Shown one piece after another: positions 55,890 through 64,000 of a stretch of 64,000 nucleotides of DNA; the first letter of the stretch is position 1, and the number at the start of each line of letters is the position of its first letter. Under the pieces are notes generated by a model. It did not search any database and was not told the DNA's origin. It was given only the letters and a program-made list of their open reading frames with translations. The stretch comes from Gloeobacterales cyanobacterium. GTDB taxonomy: Bacteria; Cyanobacteriota; Cyanobacteriia; Gloeobacterales; PMM-0068. The DNA lies in NCBI GenBank assembly GCA_038245785.1, contig JBBRSB010000009.1:67397-131396 (forward strand), written 5' to 3'. A program made the translations under genes and the position numbers.

Positions 55890-56089
55890 AGCTATCGAAA
55901 CTTTTTGAGTTGACTGTTAATATTTCTTCCTTAGTCGGTTGGCTCACGACAATAATAAATGGCAACAGAAGATGTCAATCGCATGATTAATTTGCAATTT
56001 TTTAAACGCAAGGAAAGCAGAGAAGGAGCATAGGACTCTAAAGTTTGTTTGTGCTATACTATATTAGCATTTCGTTCATCGCTACTGTT

Positions 56090-58405
56090 ATGTTAGATAT
56101 CCGCGCTCAGATTGCTAGCGAATTAGATTTGAATCCTAGTTTGGTTCAGAATGTTTTAAATCTATTCTCTGAGGGAGCGACGATTCCGTTTATTGCGCGG
56201 TATCGGAAAGAGCGTACGGGAGAGATGAATGAAATCGTCTTGCGCGAGTTGGAAGAAAGATTTACTTATTTAACAGAATTAGCGGCGAGAAAGGAGACCA
56301 TTATTAGTTCGATCGAGTCTCAAAATAAACTGACTCCAGAACTAAAAACCGAGATTGAAAATTGTTTACTCAAAACTGAGTTAGAAGATCTGTATCTACC
56401 GTACAAGCCCAAGCGAAGAACTAGAGCGACTATTGCCAGGGAAAGAGGACTAGATCCTTTGGCTGAGGTCATTCGCTCGCTCAATAATCTCACCGCACAA
56501 CCAATAGATTTAGCATTAGAAGCGGCAAACTATATCAATGAACAACTAGGCGTGGAAACAGCCTCCGATGCGCTGGCTGGAGCTGCAGATATTTTGGCAG
56601 AATCAACTGCTGACAAAGCTAATTTACGTGCTTACATTCGCGAGTATATTCAATCAGAAGGTCAATTTACTTCTAGCATCAAAGATGATCTGGAAGAGGG
56701 CTCAACTAAATATGAGATGTATCGGAAATATTCAGTACCTGTGAGCAAGGTTGCTTCCCATAATCTCTTAGCCCTATTTCGCGGTGAAACTGAGAAAATT
56801 CTCAATTTGGAACTGGTGTTCAATGAAGATGATATTTTCGATTATTTAGCCATACAAGAAATTAAGACTAAAGAACCTGCAATCCGTCAATTTTATCAGA
56901 GCATGCTCAAAGATGCCTTCAATCGGTTAATGAAGACATCGCTCATTAATGAAGTTCGCGCTGAAGCTAAATTGCAGGCAGATATCGGTTCGATTTCCAA
57001 CTTTGAAACCAATTTGCGGCAGTTACTATTATCGGCACCTGCAGGTATGAAACCGACACTCGCGATCGATCCTGGTTTTCGTTCTGGGTGTAAAGTTGCG
57101 GTGCTATCGGAAACGGGTAAATTCCTAGCCTATGAAGCAGTTTTCCCCCATCAATCAGCGAGCCAACGCCAACAAGCGGCAAATACAGTTAGGCAGTTCA
57201 TCAAAAAATATAACATCCAACTCGTCGCGATCGGCAATGGTACCGCAGGACGTGAAACCGATCAGTTTGTAATCGAGTTGCTCACAGATATCGAACCGAA
57301 ACCGATTAAAGTAATGGTAAATGAATCGGGCGCATCGATTTATTCTGCAAGTGAAGTAGCTATCTCCGAATTTCCCGATCTCGATATTACTGTACGCGGG
57401 GCAATTAGTATCGGGCGCAGGTTACAAGATCCCTTGGCTGAATTAGTAAAAATCGATCCAAAATCGATCGGGGTCGGACAGTATCAGCATGACGTAGATC
57501 AAAAACTCCTTAGAAAGAAACTTGATGATACCGTCGAAAGTTGCGTTAACTATGTCGGCGTAGATCTCAATACTGCATCTAAAGAATTACTCACCTTCGT
57601 CTCTGGATTAACTCCCATAGTTGCTAACAACATCGTCGCCTATCGGAATGAGAACGGAGCTTTTAAAAATCGCAAACAACTGCTAAAAGTAGCTAAGCTC
57701 GGCCCCAAAGCCTTCGAGCAAGCGGCGGGATTCCTCCGCATTCGGGATGGCGAGAATCCCCTTGATAATACAGCAGTCCATCCAGAGAGTTATGGTGTTC
57801 TGGCATTGATCGTCAAAGAGGCAAACATTCCCCTCGCCGAACCGACTAAGCTCGCTGCAGAACTCAAAAAGACCAATCTTCAGAAATATACTACGGATTC
57901 AATCGGCGAACCCACTCTTCGCGACATGATTAGCGAACTCGAAAAACCTGGACGCGACCCCCGCGCCGAGTTCAAATATGCCACCTTTAAGGAAGGCATT
58001 CAAGAAATTAAAGATTTAGAAGTCGGGATGGAGTTGGAAGGCACAGTGACTAACGTAGCTAACTTTGGTGCCTTTGTCGATATTGGGGTGCATCAGGATG
58101 GATTGGTGCATATTTCTCAACTAGCTGATACTTTCGTCCGTGACCCCAATCAGGTTGTCAAAGTTGGTCAAGTGGTAAAGGTTCGGGTGTTGGAAGTTAA
58201 TGCTCAGTTGAAGCGGGTGAGTTTATCGATGAAGGTGAATGCTGGCGATGGTCAGGTGGGGGAGAAGCCAGCGGGACGTACGACTCAACCTCAACAAGGT
58301 TTGGTTAAGCCGCAACCAAGATCGGTCACAACTCAACCAGCTTCAACCTCGAACCAGCCAGCTACGCTTGCAGATTTACAGCGTAAGTTTGGTAAGAAGA
58401 AGTAA
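56090..58405 (+). CDS. tex: Tex family RNA-binding transcriptional accessory protein
   Basis: GATIPFIARYRKE.TG, DPGFRSG.K, GNGTA, IGVGQYQHD, C-terminal S1 domain FGAFVDIGVHQDGLVHIS. Confidence 0.96.
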   Translation: MLDIRAQIASELDLNPSLVQNVLNLFSEGATIPFIARYRKERTGEMNEIVLRELEERFTYLTELAARKETIISSIESQNKLTPELKTEIENCLLKTELEDLYLPYKPKRRTRATIARERGLDPLAEVIRSLNNLTAQPIDLALEAANYINEQLGVETASDALAGAADILAESTADKANLRAYIREYIQSEGQFTSSIKDDLEEGSTKYEMYRKYSVPVSKVASHNLLALFRGETEKILNLELVFNEDDIFDYLAIQEIKTKEPAIRQFYQSMLKDAFNRLMKTSLINEVRAEAKLQADIGSISNFETNLRQLLLSAPAGMKPTLAIDPGFRSGCKVAVLSETGKFLAYEAVFPHQSASQRQQAANTVRQFIKKYNIQLVAIGNGTAGRETDQFVIELLTDIEPKPIKVMVNESGASIYSASEVAISEFPDLDITVRGAISIGRRLQDPLAELVKIDPKSIGVGQYQHDVDQKLLRKKLDDTVESCVNYVGVDLNTASKELLTFVSGLTPIVANNIVAYRNENGAFKNRKQLLKVAKLGPKAFEQAAGFLRIRDGENPLDNTAVHPESYGVLALIVKEANIPLAEPTKLAAELKKTNLQKYTTDSIGEPTLRDMISELEKPGRDPRAEFKYATFKEGIQEIKDLEVGMELEGTVTNVANFGAFVDIGVHQDGLVHISQLADTFVRDPNQVVKVGQVVKVRVLEVNAQLKRVSLSMKVNAGDGQVGEKPAGRTTQPQQGLVKPQPRSVTTQPASTSNQPATLADLQRKFGKKK

Positions 58406-58429
58406 GTTAGGACAACCGAATATTTGTAA

Positions 58430-59005
58430 TTAGGGCGGAGAACGAAAACAAGACACTACGTGATCATTGACCATGCCGACGGCCTGCATGTAGGCATAGA
58501 TGATAGTCGAGCCGACAAAACTCATGCCGCGCTTTTTTAAGTCCTTCGACAAGTCATCCGATTCAGCGGTCTGCGCCGGGACATCGTCCCTGGTTTTGGG
58601 GCGATTGATTTTGGGGTTCCCACCGATAAACGGCCAGACGTAGGCATCGAACGAACTGAATTCTTTTTGAATCGCAAGAAACACAAGGGCATTTTTGCGA
58701 GCCGAAAAAACTTTGAGCCGATTGCGAACAATGCTCGGCTCCAACAGTAGCGCTTCGAGTTCGCTATCGCTCATGGCTGCGACTTCTTTCGGATCAAACT
58801 GTTTGAATGTCCGACGATAGCCTTCACGTAATTTCAAGATGGTTTCCCAACTCAAGCCAGCTTGCGCACCTTCTAAAATCAGCATCTCAAAGTGTTTGCG
58901 GTCGTCATGAACGGGCACCCCCCACTCTGTGTCATGGTAGTGCTGCTCATGAGGCTGCTTACTTTTTTCAGCCCACGCACAACGAATTCTTTGCTTGGAT
59001 TTCAT
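58430..59005 (-). CDS. tag: DNA-3-methyladenine glycosylase I
   Basis: RC.W, YHD.EWG.P, LEGAQAGLSW, IVRNRLK, FVG.TI.YA.MQA.GMVNDH...C. Confidence 0.95.
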   Translation of the reverse strand: MKSKQRIRCAWAEKSKQPHEQHYHDTEWGVPVHDDRKHFEMLILEGAQAGLSWETILKLREGYRRTFKQFDPKEVAAMSDSELEALLLEPSIVRNRLKVFSARKNALVFLAIQKEFSSFDAYVWPFIGGNPKINRPKTRDDVPAQTAESDDLSKDLKKRGMSFVGSTIIYAYMQAVGMVNDHVVSCFRSPP

Positions 59006-59236
59006 GGTTGGGTTATGCCTCTATCGCGGAATGCAGCGCGATGCCCTTGCCCTTGAGTCAAGCACTTCCGCGCAGAAGCCATACTATCTGATGGCGAGGA
59101 TATCCTACAGTCCAGTGCTCAATATTGGATATGCATCTGCTAAACAATCAGGTCCAAGCCCTCTAGGCCAGAAACTTATTTCATTAGATCTCAAACTCTA
59201 ACCTTATTGAGCGGCTTCTACTGTCATCGCCCCAAA

Positions 59237-59506
59237 CTACATCCGTTTCAGTAACTCGTCATACTCATCATGGGTGCCAATCCAATACCAGTAAATATGA
59301 TCAGATTCCAAGAAACCCAGAACACGATAATTGAGACTGACACGAGCGGAGTAAATTGGTTGTCTCTGACTAACTCGTTTGAATTGAAGGCTAGGATGAT
59401 AGGGATCCGCTTGCCAAAACGTATAAGCTTTCGCAGCTTGCTCCTAAACTGATGCAGGAAGACCTCCAAGCTGTTTACGATATGCTTTAGTTACGCTTGA
59501 TTTCAT
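59237..59506 (-). pseudogene. ParE-like toxin with an in-frame nonsense codon
   Basis: MKSSVTKAYRKQLGGLPASV*EQAAKAYTFWQADPYHPSLQFKRV...YR.LG......YWYWIGTHDEYDELLKRM; TAG at 59446-59444; ATGA overlap with the antitoxin. Confidence 0.85.
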
Positions 59507-59733
59507 GTCTGAGATGGAAAAACAGTATCCAATGGAACTGTTTCACCACTTGCGATCTCTTGTCGTACCATTGCGGCCATCTGATCCCACTGATCATCGG
59601 TCGTTACGGCAAAACGAGCTTCCCATTTTTGCTCATCTTGCAATTCAGCCAGAAACCTAGATGCAATCGCATCTTGCTGATCGGGCGGCAGTTTTTGGAT
59701 TTGGGCGATCGCCTGTTGAAGCAGTTCAGTCAT
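59503..59733 (-). CDS. antitoxin-like protein
   Basis: MTELLQQAIAQ...LP..QQDAIA...LAEL.DEQ.W...F...; coupled to the downstream toxin. Confidence 0.75.
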   Translation of the reverse strand: MTELLQQAIAQIQKLPPDQQDAIASRFLAELQDEQKWEARFAVTTDDQWDQMAAMVRQEIASGETVPLDTVFPSQT

Positions 59734-59952
59734 TTCTCAGCAGTGGTGAATACCACAATGTTATACAGCCCCTTAATTCTACCCGATGCTTTAAATAATT
59801 GTTTTCAGTAAATTTATTCGACTCAGAGACTTGTTAGGTTAAATTTGAGTTATAACCTTATCCCATTTAACGGTTGTCAAATAAACCTAAATTTCGCCAC
59901 TAAAGTTGTTAATAAGGTTAGCGTTGATATTAATGAGATATGGTAAAAGTCA

Positions 59953-60243
59953 AAGACAAGTTGCCTCAATGCAACGAGAATGTACTCACTAGACATAGGT
60001 TACAGGCTGGATGCCGAGGGTTTCCATGAGTTGTGCGAGGGAAACTTGGCGCAGTTGGGCGAGGTTGGCGAGGGCTTCAAGGCGTTGGGCACCCAATTGT
60101 TCGATTTGATTGCTGAGTTGGATGAGGGTGTTGTATTCAATGTCGTTGAGGGTTTCGGCTTCGCGTTTAGCGCGGAGTACTTGGTATTGGGCACGGAGTT
60201 CTGAGGGAATGCCTTGGTTGATTTTTTCGAGGAGTTGGGCTTC
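59953..60243 (-). pseudogene. 291-bp partial duplicate of 61488-61778 (5'-truncated antitoxin-like gene plus first codons of the HNH gene)
   Basis: Colinear, highly similar DNA encoding EAQLL.KINQGIPSELRAQYQVLRAKREAETL...PVTYV* and MSSEYI. Confidence 0.85.
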
Positions 60244-60259
60244 GACTCTATAAAACGCA

Positions 60260-60655
60260 TTACGGAATAAAAATTCGCCTTGCACCTTGATAATCCTCGA
60301 TATCTACTACGATATCAACCAAACGATTAACACAACGCTCCCGATAATTTGGTTCAATCAATAGTCGATCAATATTGCCTATCGTAAGGACAGGTAATGA
60401 GTTGGGAGCATTTTCCTCGCGCATCACTTGTTCTAATGAATCTTTTCCCTTCATACTTCGATTAGCAGTGATCAAAATCATCTGATTGACTTGAGCATAC
60501 CGCCAAACGGCGCGGTCGTTGCTGGTGACGGCTAATCCTACTTCTTCAAATAAGACAAAGCGGATAGAAATTAGATCCAGCCATCCACTTGCCGCAAGAC
60601 TACCTGCTAGGACAACAGAATGTCCTCGTAAATTATGGTCTACCAGAAAGTTCAT
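60260..60655 (-). CDS. DUF5615-like PIN-related toxin
   Basis: FLVDHNL, GL....ND..VW..AQ...MILIT.NR, C-terminal G..RIFIP; ATGA-coupled to DUF433. Confidence 0.7.
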   Translation of the reverse strand: MNFLVDHNLRGHSVVLAGSLAASGWLDLISIRFVLFEEVGLAVTSNDRAVWRYAQVNQMILITANRSMKGKDSLEQVMREENAPNSLPVLTIGNIDRLLIEPNYRERCVNRLVDIVVDIEDYQGARRIFIP

Positions 60656-61026
60656 GCTTGAGCTTCAAGCTTGGCTCGTTCTACTTGAAGTTTCGCCCGA
60701 ATCGCTTCTGTACCTGGTTTTGGTGGCTTTGCCGCTATACGAGCGATGCGCTCGCGATTTTGTTCTTCATAATACTGCCGCAATTCTTCGGCGTCCTTGA
60801 GAACAAGTTGGTATTCTGTTTCAACTTCTGCATAGTGACTATCAATGTAGGCCAGAGCAGCATTCACTTGCTCCTCCGTCAGATTGAGCATGGCCCGTAT
60901 AAATTTTGATGGATAGTGTTCTGTCACGTAATCCATCACATCGTAAAGCGTGATGCGCGTACCTTCGATGGTTAGTCCACGTTCCGTACGAATAATTAAG
61001 GTCTGTCCAGTCGGTTCTGGAGTCAT
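60652..61026 (-). CDS. DUF433 family antitoxin
   Basis: I.GTRIT.YDV, L.LT.EQV.AAL.Y. Confidence 0.85.
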   Translation of the reverse strand: MTPEPTGQTLIIRTERGLTIEGTRITLYDVMDYVTEHYPSKFIRAMLNLTEEQVNAALAYIDSHYAEVETEYQLVLKDAEELRQYYEEQNRERIARIAAKPPKPGTEAIRAKLQVERAKLEAQA

Positions 61027-61178
61027 ACCTATAGCCCTTAGGAATCTAGCTTTATGCTACTCCAGATATAGGTGAAGCGTTGCTGGACTTTTCGGAACCC
61101 GCAGACTTGGTGAAGTGGCAAGGCAAATATTCTGCATAGCAGTTGCCACAGATTATCTCTTACCCGCCTGAAATTTGC

Positions 61179-61531
61179 CTAGTCAGGTGGATGTTCATTC
61201 ATGATTGTGAGAACTCGACGCATATTAACTATGCCATCACGGTTGGTTTGCAGGAGGTTGATCGTAGCGCGTCCAATTGGCGTAATCCCCAGCATTTTTG
61301 TCGCATCTGTGTTCCAAATAAAATGCTCGTCCCAGTTCATTTGTCGGGGATGAAAGAGTGGGACGATTTGGTCTGTCACTGGGTCGAGGGCTTCGGTTTT
61401 GGTGTATTTGTAGTTGTTGCAGGTTTGGCAGGAGAGGGCAAGATTTTCTGACTGCGGCAATATTCACACATTCCACGGCCACGCTCGAAGACAAGTTGCT
61501 TCAAGGCAATAGGAATGTACTCACTAGACAT
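61179..61531 (-). pseudogene. HNH endonuclease with internal deletion and frameshift
   Basis: MSSEYIPIALKQLVFERGRGMCEYCRSQ in one frame, ENLALSCQTCNNYK...LFHPR...W.EHF.W in another; the usual DHI.P...GG segment is missing. Confidence 0.8.
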
Positions 61532-61898
61532 AGGTTATAGGCTGGATGCCGAGGGTTTCCATGAGTTGATCGAGGGAAACTTGGCGCAGTTGAGCGAGAT
61601 TGGCGAGGGCTTCGAGGCGTTGGGCACCAAGCTGTTCGATTTGATTGCTGAGTTGGATGAGGGTGTTGTATTCAGTTTCGCTTAGGGTTTCGGCTTCGCG
61701 TTTGGCGCGGAGAACTTGATATTGGGCACGGAGTTCTGAGGGAATGCCTTGGTTGATTTTGTCAAGGAGTTGGGCTTCTTCGGCAGGCAGAACATGGGCT
61801 TTGCGTTGGGTACGCAGGATGACGACCTGTTGGAGCAGCCGATTGAGATCGGTTTCGTCGAGTTGATTAGCGGCCTTGATGAGTTCGTCGAGGCTCAT
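61524..61898 (-). CDS. helical antitoxin-like protein, partner of the HNH gene
   Basis: LS..EY..LI.L....E.L.A.RLEAL..LA.LR.VSL..LM..LGI; overlaps the HNH start by 8 bp. Confidence 0.7.
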   Translation of the reverse strand: MSLDELIKAANQLDETDLNRLLQQVVILRTQRKAHVLPAEEAQLLDKINQGIPSELRAQYQVLRAKREAETLSETEYNTLIQLSNQIEQLGAQRLEALANLAQLRQVSLDQLMETLGIQPITYV

Positions 61899-61982
61899 GA
61901 GTACTTGGGGAGTTGCGATAGCTTTCTTATTATAAACACTCTTATCGGGCTTCCCTCATGACGCTTAAATTCCCAATTTGCG

Positions 61983-62099
61983 GTATAACGCTGCTATCAC
62001 GCGCCCGCAATGTGGAGCGATTTTTGTGTTAATCGCTGCGCTCTACCTAACACAAAAATCGCGTAGCAATGTAGTTCGGAGTGCATAGCTTTGTTAAAT
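61983..62099 (-). other. integron attC recombination site (117 bp)
   Basis: Minus strand R'' ATTTAAC, AAAGC, L'' TATGCAC (extra G versus L' GTGATA), central 15-bp stem GCGATTTTTGTGTTA/TAACACAAAAATCGC, GCAGC, R' GTTATAC; begins 18 bp after the HEPN stop. Confidence 0.85.
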
Positions 62100-62117
62100 C
62101 GTATATTTTCAAAACGC

Positions 62118-62663
62118 TCACTCCAACTTCAAAGCTAGCATTTCTGTAATTTTGCTAAGTTGTCTAAGCTGTTCTTCTAACTGTTTCCTTGTTATTTCAA
62201 CACCAATATCTCCATGAGCTATGGAATCTCTGGTTGACGCCATACTATCCAAAACTGTCAATAAAGTGTGTTCGTCTTCTATGAAAAAAATTCCCATGCT
62301 GTTAAATAGCTTTTCGACTGCTTGAGACTTATATTTAGGGACTCTGTCTTGAGTGAAGTTACGATAATTTATTTCTTTCGGGTTTTTCTTATAGCAAGAC
62401 ACAACTTTATTTAGAGTCAACTCCTCCTCTGAGTTACCGTAAAAATTTCTAGTCAACAAGCATATGTGTATATCAGCGATATCTCTTTTTTTGATTTTAT
62501 CAATATAATTTTCGGCTTTTTGCTTAACGCTTGCTTCAAATTCTGAAAGCATCATTAACCACATTGCCTTTAGTGTATAAGATTCGCTCTCATTTTTCGG
62601 CTCTCCTTCTCTCCCAGTAAAAGTACTAAGAACGTCTAAAATTCTGGACTTACCTTCATCCAT
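62118..62663 (-). CDS. HEPN-domain protein (RiboL-PSP/MAE_28990-like)
   Basis: Rx4H motif RDSIAHG and upstream SEFE helix; 1 bp downstream of DUF262. Confidence 0.75.
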   Translation of the reverse strand: MDEGKSRILDVLSTFTGREGEPKNESESYTLKAMWLMMLSEFEASVKQKAENYIDKIKKRDIADIHICLLTRNFYGNSEEELTLNKVVSCYKKNPKEINYRNFTQDRVPKYKSQAVEKLFNSMGIFFIEDEHTLLTVLDSMASTRDSIAHGDIGVEITRKQLEEQLRQLSKITEMLALKLE

Positions 62664-62664
62664 A

Positions 62665-63717
62665 TTAAAGTTCCGAATTAGAAATAATATTTTTAATTTC
62701 AGAAACTCTTTTTTCGATCATTTTTCCGCCAGCCTGGGAATGCAAGCTTTTTCTAAAATCTGGGTCAACCATTAGTTTTTCGAGATTCGTTACAAACTCT
62801 TCACTCGTAATTGTAATTTCTTTTCCGATGAAATCGGAAAATGCCAACATTTCAGCATCATATAAAGATCGATTTGTCAAACTCGCCCATTTTCCCGTTT
62901 TTTCACCAAAATTCGAAAATGCCTTGTCTCCAAGATATCTATTGACTAATTCGATAGTGTCGAGAAATAGGTTTTTAAGCTTGGCTATCGTCTCTTTAGT
63001 CGGGTTTTGATTTTTTTTCATATAGCTGGTAAGAAAATATGACAGGTTTTTAACGCGCTTGTACTCACTATCGTGGTAAGCAAAAAATCGAAGAACCAAC
63101 TCTTCATGTGCCATGTTTTTATCATCGCTCTTTAATCGTAAATTCAACATCTTTTTAAACAATTTGTCATTTGCTAAGTCTTTGAGTAAATCATTAAACT
63201 CTCCTCTTAACGTGTTATTTCTTATTTCTTGAGGAGTTAACTGAATGCTTCCTAGATTTAGTCGTTCGAACACTTCATATTTCACTTCTTCATCTGACTC
63301 ATTCAAGATGACAATTGCCCTGATAGACCTTTTCCTTATTTCATCACGGTCTCTCTGGGAAAGTTCTGAATACTTTTTATCGTTGACATCGTCTCGCAAT
63401 TGCAGATTCTTTAATGCAAAATCATCCTTAAGAAATCTTTGGAAAGTGTATAGCCGTTGCTGACCATCAATGACCTCATACTTCAAGGTTTCGGCCTGCT
63501 CGGCAAAATAAATAACAGGAATTGGAATATTTAGTAAGAGTGATTCTATTAATCTAGAACATTTATTTTGTACTTCATCATTTGATGCCCAGACATAGTT
63601 TCTCTGATAGTCTGGATTCAAATCAATATCGCCAGAGTCAATCTTATCTACTATATCCTGGACTGAATAATCATATGGTTGAGCCAAAATACGGCGGGGA
63701 GTTTTATTTGAAGTCAT
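62665..63717 (-). CDS. DUF262 (ParB/Srx-like, GmrS-type) domain protein
   Basis: P.YQRNYVW, S.LIES.L..IPIP, IDGQQRL, FERLN.G...L..QEIRN; ATG 63717 follows AGGGA. Confidence 0.92.
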   Translation of the reverse strand: MTSNKTPRRILAQPYDYSVQDIVDKIDSGDIDLNPDYQRNYVWASNDEVQNKCSRLIESLLLNIPIPVIYFAEQAETLKYEVIDGQQRLYTFQRFLKDDFALKNLQLRDDVNDKKYSELSQRDRDEIRKRSIRAIVILNESDEEVKYEVFERLNLGSIQLTPQEIRNNTLRGEFNDLLKDLANDKLFKKMLNLRLKSDDKNMAHEELVLRFFAYHDSEYKRVKNLSYFLTSYMKKNQNPTKETIAKLKNLFLDTIELVNRYLGDKAFSNFGEKTGKWASLTNRSLYDAEMLAFSDFIGKEITITSEEFVTNLEKLMVDPDFRKSLHSQAGGKMIEKRVSEIKNIISNSEL

Positions 63718-63831
63718 GAAATTTTCCCTAAGTATATTTTCAAATACCATACTGATCGATCCATGCCGTAAAAATATTTTTCTTTTCTTTTGTAAAACAT
63801 TAAACGTCACCAACTCAACTATCTGGAAGGG

Positions 63832-63851
63832 GATTTAACTATTTATTAGAC
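63832..63851 (-). other. attI-like simple site
   Basis: Minus strand GTCTAAT-AAATA-GTTAAATC: degenerate L box, 5-bp spacer, GTTRRRY R box; no attC-type long palindrome upstream. Confidence 0.55.
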
Positions 63852-64000
63852 TGACTTTCTCTGTCTTGTATCTTGAGAGTTAACTGGGTAACTAGGTAAT
63901 ACTGGTTCCAGGTCTACTTCCTATAGAGGAAGTGGGAGGCAGAAGTGAGGCTGTTTGTCTGTCTAGGTGATGAGCCTGTTGATTAGATAAGTCCCTTCTG

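Follow-up and report, generated by a model that had tools for sequence, protein, structure and literature searches.

The 64,000-nt stretch of DNA analysed here (the window), from a Gloeobacterales cyanobacterium, carries near its end an intact integron cassette inserted at a genuine attI site, and the intact integrase gene, intI, lies elsewhere in the genome. We consider it likely that this locus is an orphan platform: a true attI holds one intact defence cassette, a stub of intI lies beyond it, an IS110-family element splits an accessory box, and mobilisation is possible only in trans, through the sole intact IntI. About 26 attI platforms occur in this genome. The following elements make up the end of the window.

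63832..63864, minus strand: attI, with the G/TT crossover at 63839/63838, a 5-nt spacer and the L box at 63845-63851.
62665..63717, minus strand: gene for a DUF262/GmrSD_N protein (ParB-like NTPase) of 350 aa from the ATG at 63717 (Pfam, E 1.5e-29).
62118..62663, minus strand: gene for a RiboL-PSP-type HEPN protein of 181 aa (PF18735, E 1.9e-10).
61983..62099, minus strand: attC of 117 nt, whose recombining bottom strand is the plus strand.
63865..64000, plus strand: left end of an IS110-family element, truncated where the contig ends, with the core CT at 63865-63866.
63957..63986, plus strand: predicted bridge-RNA target guides, left 63957-63964 and right 63980-63986.

The first-pass annotation had proposed that a simple site upstream of the cassette was attI, and this GTCTAAT-N5-GTT site is a genuine cyanobacterial-type attI. 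Ten other copies in the genome, without the window site, gave a profile that scores it at E 6.6e-5. A second profile, which also left it out, matches 39 of 64 foreign intI-upstream regions (of 90 loci, those with 300 nt or more of upstream sequence); reversed, none of the 64 is matched. The crossover-proximal 30 nt are identical to those of the intI-linked attI on contig C52, and the conservation shared with sites beside intI stops at the GTT. The fallback reading of the annotation, a solitary cassette dropped at a secondary genomic site (attG, giving a SALIN), is scarcely credible. The window does hold a single full attC, and SALINs are described as common and as arising by attG insertion (bioRxiv 2022.09.11.507474), but the cassette sits in a conserved attI that is homologous to intI-side sites here and in other genomes, and attG sites are described in the same source as unlike attI. 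With a single detectable attC plus an attI, the locus thus falls outside the CALIN/SALIN definition; a program blind to attI would label it a SALIN.

The attC has the anatomy first described for it, with an extrahelical base in the L pair and a long central stem. The R boxes (R' 61983-61989, R'' 62093-62099) form four pairs, and the L boxes (L' 61993-62000, L'' 62081-62089) form eight, with a single extrahelical C at 62084 on the plus strand. The central stem is a perfect 15-bp helix (62017-62031 with 62048-62062), and the whole site begins 18 nt past the HEPN stop codon. When folded, the plus (bottom) strand gives -21.1 kcal/mol (z -2.45), with two of 200 shuffles equally good. The form with fully paired R and L boxes has a probability of 0.13, and the minimum-energy fold adopts a different register in the inner L box. 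At the other end of the cassette, the 5' core (63832-63839) is the exact complement of R'' (62093-62100) over 8/8 nt. As had been predicted, an excised circle would re-form an attC: the computed circle is 1850 bp, equal to the earlier estimate, and its attC closes with nine terminal pairs, compared with four to five in the chromosome.

Scoring of the attC by covariance models bore out the annotation only in part. Model R1, trained on 27 attCs that are mostly 85-90 nt long with strong covariation, leaves the window attC unscored at E<=5 and finds 39 matches elsewhere in the genome. The broader model R2, whose training set comprised 24 attCs of greater variety and excluded the window site, places its top match in the 64 kb at exactly 61983-62099 on the plus strand, at a weak 21.9 bits (E 0.0055). 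In a filtered genome-wide run of R2, which scored 150 of 547 candidates, the window attC was not among the listed matches. A strict attC grammar, drawn up after the window site had been seen, yields four matches in the 5-Mb genome, namely this site and three model-positive attCs. The same grammar gives 0-3 matches in each of ten shuffled genomes (mean 0.6), and none in the ten once an energy filter is added. An Rfam scan of 58000-64000 returned nothing at E<=1.

Several observations bear on the origin of the cassette. Its GC content is 35%, compared with 47.8% for the genome. Most homologous gene pairs have no attC, and an attC or an attC remnant is carried by 5/33 homologous loci. Two of these, metagenome loci 87-89% identical, have a truncated copy of the window attC; one combines the same genes with a full attC that is different but shares the R'', another has a truncated copy of that attC, and the fifth has yet another attC. 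No viral contig searched matched the attC stem pattern, and blastn against plasmids gave two 36-nt matches, at chance level. Neither the 1850-bp circle nor the empty-site joint was present in the contigs of four runs (X1 included); since contigs drop rare forms, this absence weighs neither for nor against excision. The cassette in the window attI is intact and was probably acquired recently.

The cassette holds two ORFs only, and the description of a foreign, defence-type first cassette at attI is supported. The DUF262 protein retains an intact DGQQR motif and matches the PADLOC profiles NsnA (5.6e-78) and PD-T4-2_A (1.4e-44) over nearly its whole length. Its homologues are about 350 aa long and up to 91% identical, and those of the cargo that carry names include Nitrosomonas (85%), Desulfobacterales, Sulfurovum and Leptospira. 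The HEPN protein has an intact RxxxxH motif and accompanies DUF262 in 25/33 homologous loci; it has no plasmid match and none in 400 cyanobacterial genomes (E<=1e-15). The cassette combines a DUF262 gene with a PF18735 HEPN gene, as listed for PD-T4-2, and none of ten HEPN proteins matched any PD-T4-2 profile at E<=10. The Menshen ATPase NsnB and NsnC are absent. Judged from its domains, the pair is likely an anti-phage system resembling PD-T4-2, in which the DUF262 NTPase would sense phage DNA and the HEPN RNase would kill or stall the cell. No promoter was predicted in a scan of 63600-64000; the leader of the cassette has a conserved motif of the -35/-10 type that might, as a guess, serve as promoter.

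The annotation had placed intI just outside the window, divergent beyond attI. This position does not hold for the intact gene. The window ends where contig C9 ends, inside the IS110 element, whose left end at 63865-64000 had been overlooked. The sole intI above the TIGR02249 cut-off (265) is intact and lies at C2:301-1266 (480 bits). It carries the R, HxxR, H and Y motifs together with the IntI insertion. Contig ends cut four IS110 ends, two left (C9, C52) and two right (C2, C53), and the depth of the IS110 interior in run X1, which may be the source sample, is about twice that of a single copy (131 versus 52-66). In the congener G001, one contig carries the genes that flank the C52 array next to those flanking the C2 intI, without an intervening integron, and G002, also a congener, has the same junction. 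This synteny pairs C2 with C52, and hence C9 with C53, so that the intact intI belongs to the C52 array. Joined in this way, C9 and C53 give a full-length platform, identical to C52+C2 in 196/251 columns (78%) and ending in the start of intI. A stub of about 30 nt is what C53 retains of the gene, and tblastn of C53 found no further intI beyond it. On this join, what the window locus has beside its attI is a stub; the gene was once there, as the annotation had supposed, and its intact form is gone. We infer the C9-C53 join by elimination and from the fit of the flanks, with no spanning read and no synteny in relatives.

A complete integron at the window locus would arise if the window ran through the IS110 into C2, the contig with intI at its start. 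The C2 gene lies 300 nt from a contig end bearing the same IS, two identical IS left ends cannot be phased by the assembly, a short platform on C30 resembles a C9-C2 join, and one IS copy in run X2 seems to have such flanks, as loose ends only. This arrangement is very improbable: the synteny in G001 and G002 ties C2 to C52, and it would need a 41-column gap in the platform (210/251 columns) as well as a tandem duplication at the other locus.

A complete integron is present in the assembly as C52:1-3990 plus C2:1-1306, with four model-detected attCs, IS110 and intI. It is missing from the orthologous site in G001 and G002, and no transposon ends were seen. At C8:134271-134864 lies a broken intI belonging to another allele (about 72% identical). 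It has frameshifts and an internal deletion, a palindrome precedes it, and it is not linked to the window locus.

The IS110 left end of the window is 93% identical to that of a full copy on C7 and 100% identical to the left end on C52. The C7 ORF matches DEDD_Tnp_IS110 (E 1.8e-20) and Transposase_20 (E 1.2e-23). The corresponding ORF of the window copy lies outside the assembled contig C9, and the IS interior is visible in run X1 contigs. The element entered the first accessory box of attI, splitting it 25 bp from the crossover; between the L box and the insertion, 13 bp of the site remain. With a guide architecture taken from PMC11208160, the predicted guides match the flanks at three insertion sites over 7-8/8 positions on the left and 5-7/7 on the right, and the C7 copy has a 9-nt left donor match. 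In addition, the left guide covaries with its target: the window and C52 copies have T facing a target T, and the C7 copy has C facing a target C. All three insertions lie in repeats of the core-like box within platforms. In the minimum-energy RNA fold of the left end, the guides are not in open loops. The element is thus predicted, from these matches, to be guided by RNA to the attI accessory box.

Other copies of this element were also seen. Just before the transposase start, the full element at C7:27263 contains a sequence that nearly repeats its own target. At C12:107140-107175, a fourth left end lies in a platform box. It runs for about 14 nt, up to a hexamer of its own that contains GTT, and there the leader of a cassette with a 124-aa ORF and an HNH-like ORF starts. 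This looks like use by IntI of a secondary site in the IS end, or a GTT-to-GTT deletion. Run X3, which comes from a separate study, has a related IS110 in the same attI box with a different sequence past the GTT, as a loose end, which suggests repeated targeting of the attI box by IS110.

Behind the first cassette, the tract continues with modules of the toxin-antitoxin (TA) type.

61179..61989, minus strand: probable second cassette with no recognisable attC (124-aa ORF 61524-61898 and HNH-like ORF 61179-61531).
60260..61026, minus strand: DUF433 and DUF5615 (PIN-like) TA-type pair, no attC found (Pfam).
59237..59733, minus strand: 76-aa ORF and a ParE-like toxin pseudogene with an internal stop (ParE_like E 4.3e-10, with X at the stop).
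58408..59005, minus strand: 3-methyladenine glycosylase gene (Pfam), then a lone R''-like heptamer (from the sequence) at the boundary with tex.

The tail of TA modules that had been postulated stands in so far as the first module begins at a GTT junction, and neither R1 nor R2 detects a further attC in it. The leader of the 124-aa/HNH module starts at GTT in three genomic copies, in the window and twice on C12; therefore, this module is probably a second cassette that has lost its attC. Its HNH-like ORF is frameshifted (HNH at E 0.028 only), and some TA-type modules are broken. The segment at about 59196-59215 is possibly a decayed R'-like end (model R1, 10.1 bits, E 2.9). The heptamer at the tex boundary likely marks the end of the foreign tract, and the glycosylase is only a candidate cassette. 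Neither the tract 58400-63860 nor tex turned up in a search of congeners (94-97% complete, no positive control), which left the empty site out of view.

Further features of this region were recorded. A short dispersed repeat at 61071-61166, between TA-type modules, also occurs on C2, C24 and C25; it is joined to other modules in run X2 and is not an attC by R1 or R2. Positions 59950-60243 partly duplicate, at 92%, the 124-aa ORF and the beginning of the HNH gene. The gene tex (56045-58405) was not found at E<=1e-50 in the four relatives searched, so the foreign tract may begin to the left of the array.

Three profiles detect 29 platform loci in the genome at E<=0.05, many of which had served as profile seeds, and 26 once IS-split halves are merged; the reversed genome gives none at E<1. 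The number of accessory boxes differs among attI copies. Among 15 attI sites examined, five have a first core whose complement is the R'' of an attC-like hairpin lying downstream. A model-detected attC lies within 4 kb of just 7/26 platforms, hence many of them look decayed. Five platforms (C3, C17, C47, C52b and C53) keep intI 5' stubs of differing length, with 70-91% identity. The closed cyanobacterial genome G028 has one intI and three further orphan attI copies of the same family, so the multi-attI pattern is not an assembly artefact. A single extra, weak attI match was found in G019, and repeats of the intI-upstream region in G003, taken as attI candidates, proved to be attC copies; orphan attI sites are clear in one of these three other genomes.

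The platforms also allow for an inert relic: the window site, like most platforms, would have been filled while its own intI was present, and the remaining IntI would no longer act on it. The five stubs look like separately decayed integrons, 19/26 platforms have no nearby model-detected attC, tail modules are broken, and the accessory box is split by the IS. On the other hand, the 30 nt next to the crossover do not differ from those of the intI-linked attI. No decay is visible in the cassette, in its attC or in the 8-bp complement, and CALINs can be mobilised in trans, according to bioRxiv 2025.06.18.660453. Weighing these points, we regard an inert relic as unlikely. A wider model, which we put forward tentatively and hold to be somewhat doubtful, is a distributed integron. 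In some cyanobacteria, one IntI would serve dozens of attI docks spread over the chromosome, whose own intI genes had been shed, so that cassettes would be captured and shuffled genome-wide. An IS110 with a bridge RNA directed at the IntI accessory boxes would parasitise the docks, freezing the first cassette, here the defence pair.

Two sets of attCs stand apart from the platforms. The small contigs C81 and C213 carry arrays of at least eight near-identical 90-nt attCs, unlike the other attCs of the genome and with no linkage to a platform. In the closed same-order genome G003 (C1:2671000-2680000), an attC cluster lies about 8 kb downstream of ubiX in the same orientation; the window array likewise lies about 8 kb downstream of ubiX. 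A shared hotspot or a coincidence is possible.

The host was rightly supposed to be an early-branching cyanobacterium. kaiA is found in 0/14 genomes of its order and in 17/17 other cyanobacteria; Gloeobacteria are described as lacking kaiABC, and the absence of kaiA throughout the order fits Gloeobacterales. Horizontal gain is indicated by the distribution of intI, which occurs in one of 13 relatives within the order, and by the closest IntIs, which come from other cyanobacteria (75-78%).

In the orphan-platform reading that we favour, a complete integron would have arrived at the locus, and its IntI would have inserted the cassette circle by recombining the attC bottom strand with attI at G/TT. 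The intI gene would then have been deleted beyond about 30 nt, and the IS110 would have landed in the accessory box, 25 bp from the crossover, these two events having occurred in either order. The insertion would place 1.3 kb between the array and any Pc upstream. It would also likely lower the capture of new cassettes by attC x attI recombination, since the direct repeats of class 1 integrons are described as favouring attI x attC reactions (PMC8946536). With an intact attC and intact L and R boxes, the cassette can likely still be excised by the C2 IntI. Activity of the cassette in trans is therefore plausible, as far as its sites can be judged.

Integron surveys rely on attC and intI and are blind to attI, and an apparently solitary cassette can occupy a true attI. 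The cyanobacterial attI profile to which this locus led works across genera. If one integrase serves many docks, the origin and live status of CALINs and SALINs become directly testable. A predicted IS110 guide aimed at attI accessory boxes would be a natural probe of the bases that IntI needs. In the open-access literature, we found no description of multi-attI genomes, of attI sites at integrase-less arrays in such number, or of an IS110 that targets attI boxes. The cassette itself and cyanobacterial integrons are ordinary: integrons and attCs have already been described in cyanobacteria, as has defence cargo in cassettes in general (bioRxiv 2024.07.02.601686).

The locus shares with sedentary chromosomal integrons and CALIN/SALIN arrays (PMC4889954; bioRxiv 2022.09.11.507474, as described there) the R/L-box attC with an extrahelical base and an array with no neighbouring intI in a genome whose IntI lies elsewhere. 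Unlike them, it retains a recognisable attI and an intI stub, in a genome with about 26 platforms. In the account given by Cury 2016 (PMC4889954), 95% of CALINs have no intI pseudogene and attI could not be searched. Like class 1 attI1, described as a simple site with DR1 and DR2 (PMC8946536), the window attI combines an L box, a 5-nt spacer, a GTT crossover and upstream repeats of a core-like box. However, it belongs to a different sequence family, common to cyanobacterial integrons, in which the box number varies and the boxes are putative binding sites. The IS110 has in common with the IS621 bridge recombinase (PMC11208160) a DEDD transposase, a CT core and a non-coding left end with guide-like target and donor matches. 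Members of the IS1111-attC group, ISKpn4 and ISPst6, are likewise reported to target integron sites (PMC11187229), but their target is attC, whereas that of the window IS110 is the attI accessory box, neither attC nor the G/TT crossover. Finally, the cassette has the domain pair with which PD-T4-2 is listed (PMC9519451, PMC10952713, PMC12065111), although its HEPN matches none of the PD-T4-2 partner profiles. Its DUF262 protein matches the NsnA profile of Menshen, described in the same three sources, whose other two components are missing here. The gene pairing is also comparable to the "RiboL-PSP-HEPN in operon with ParB" described previously (PMC3710099).
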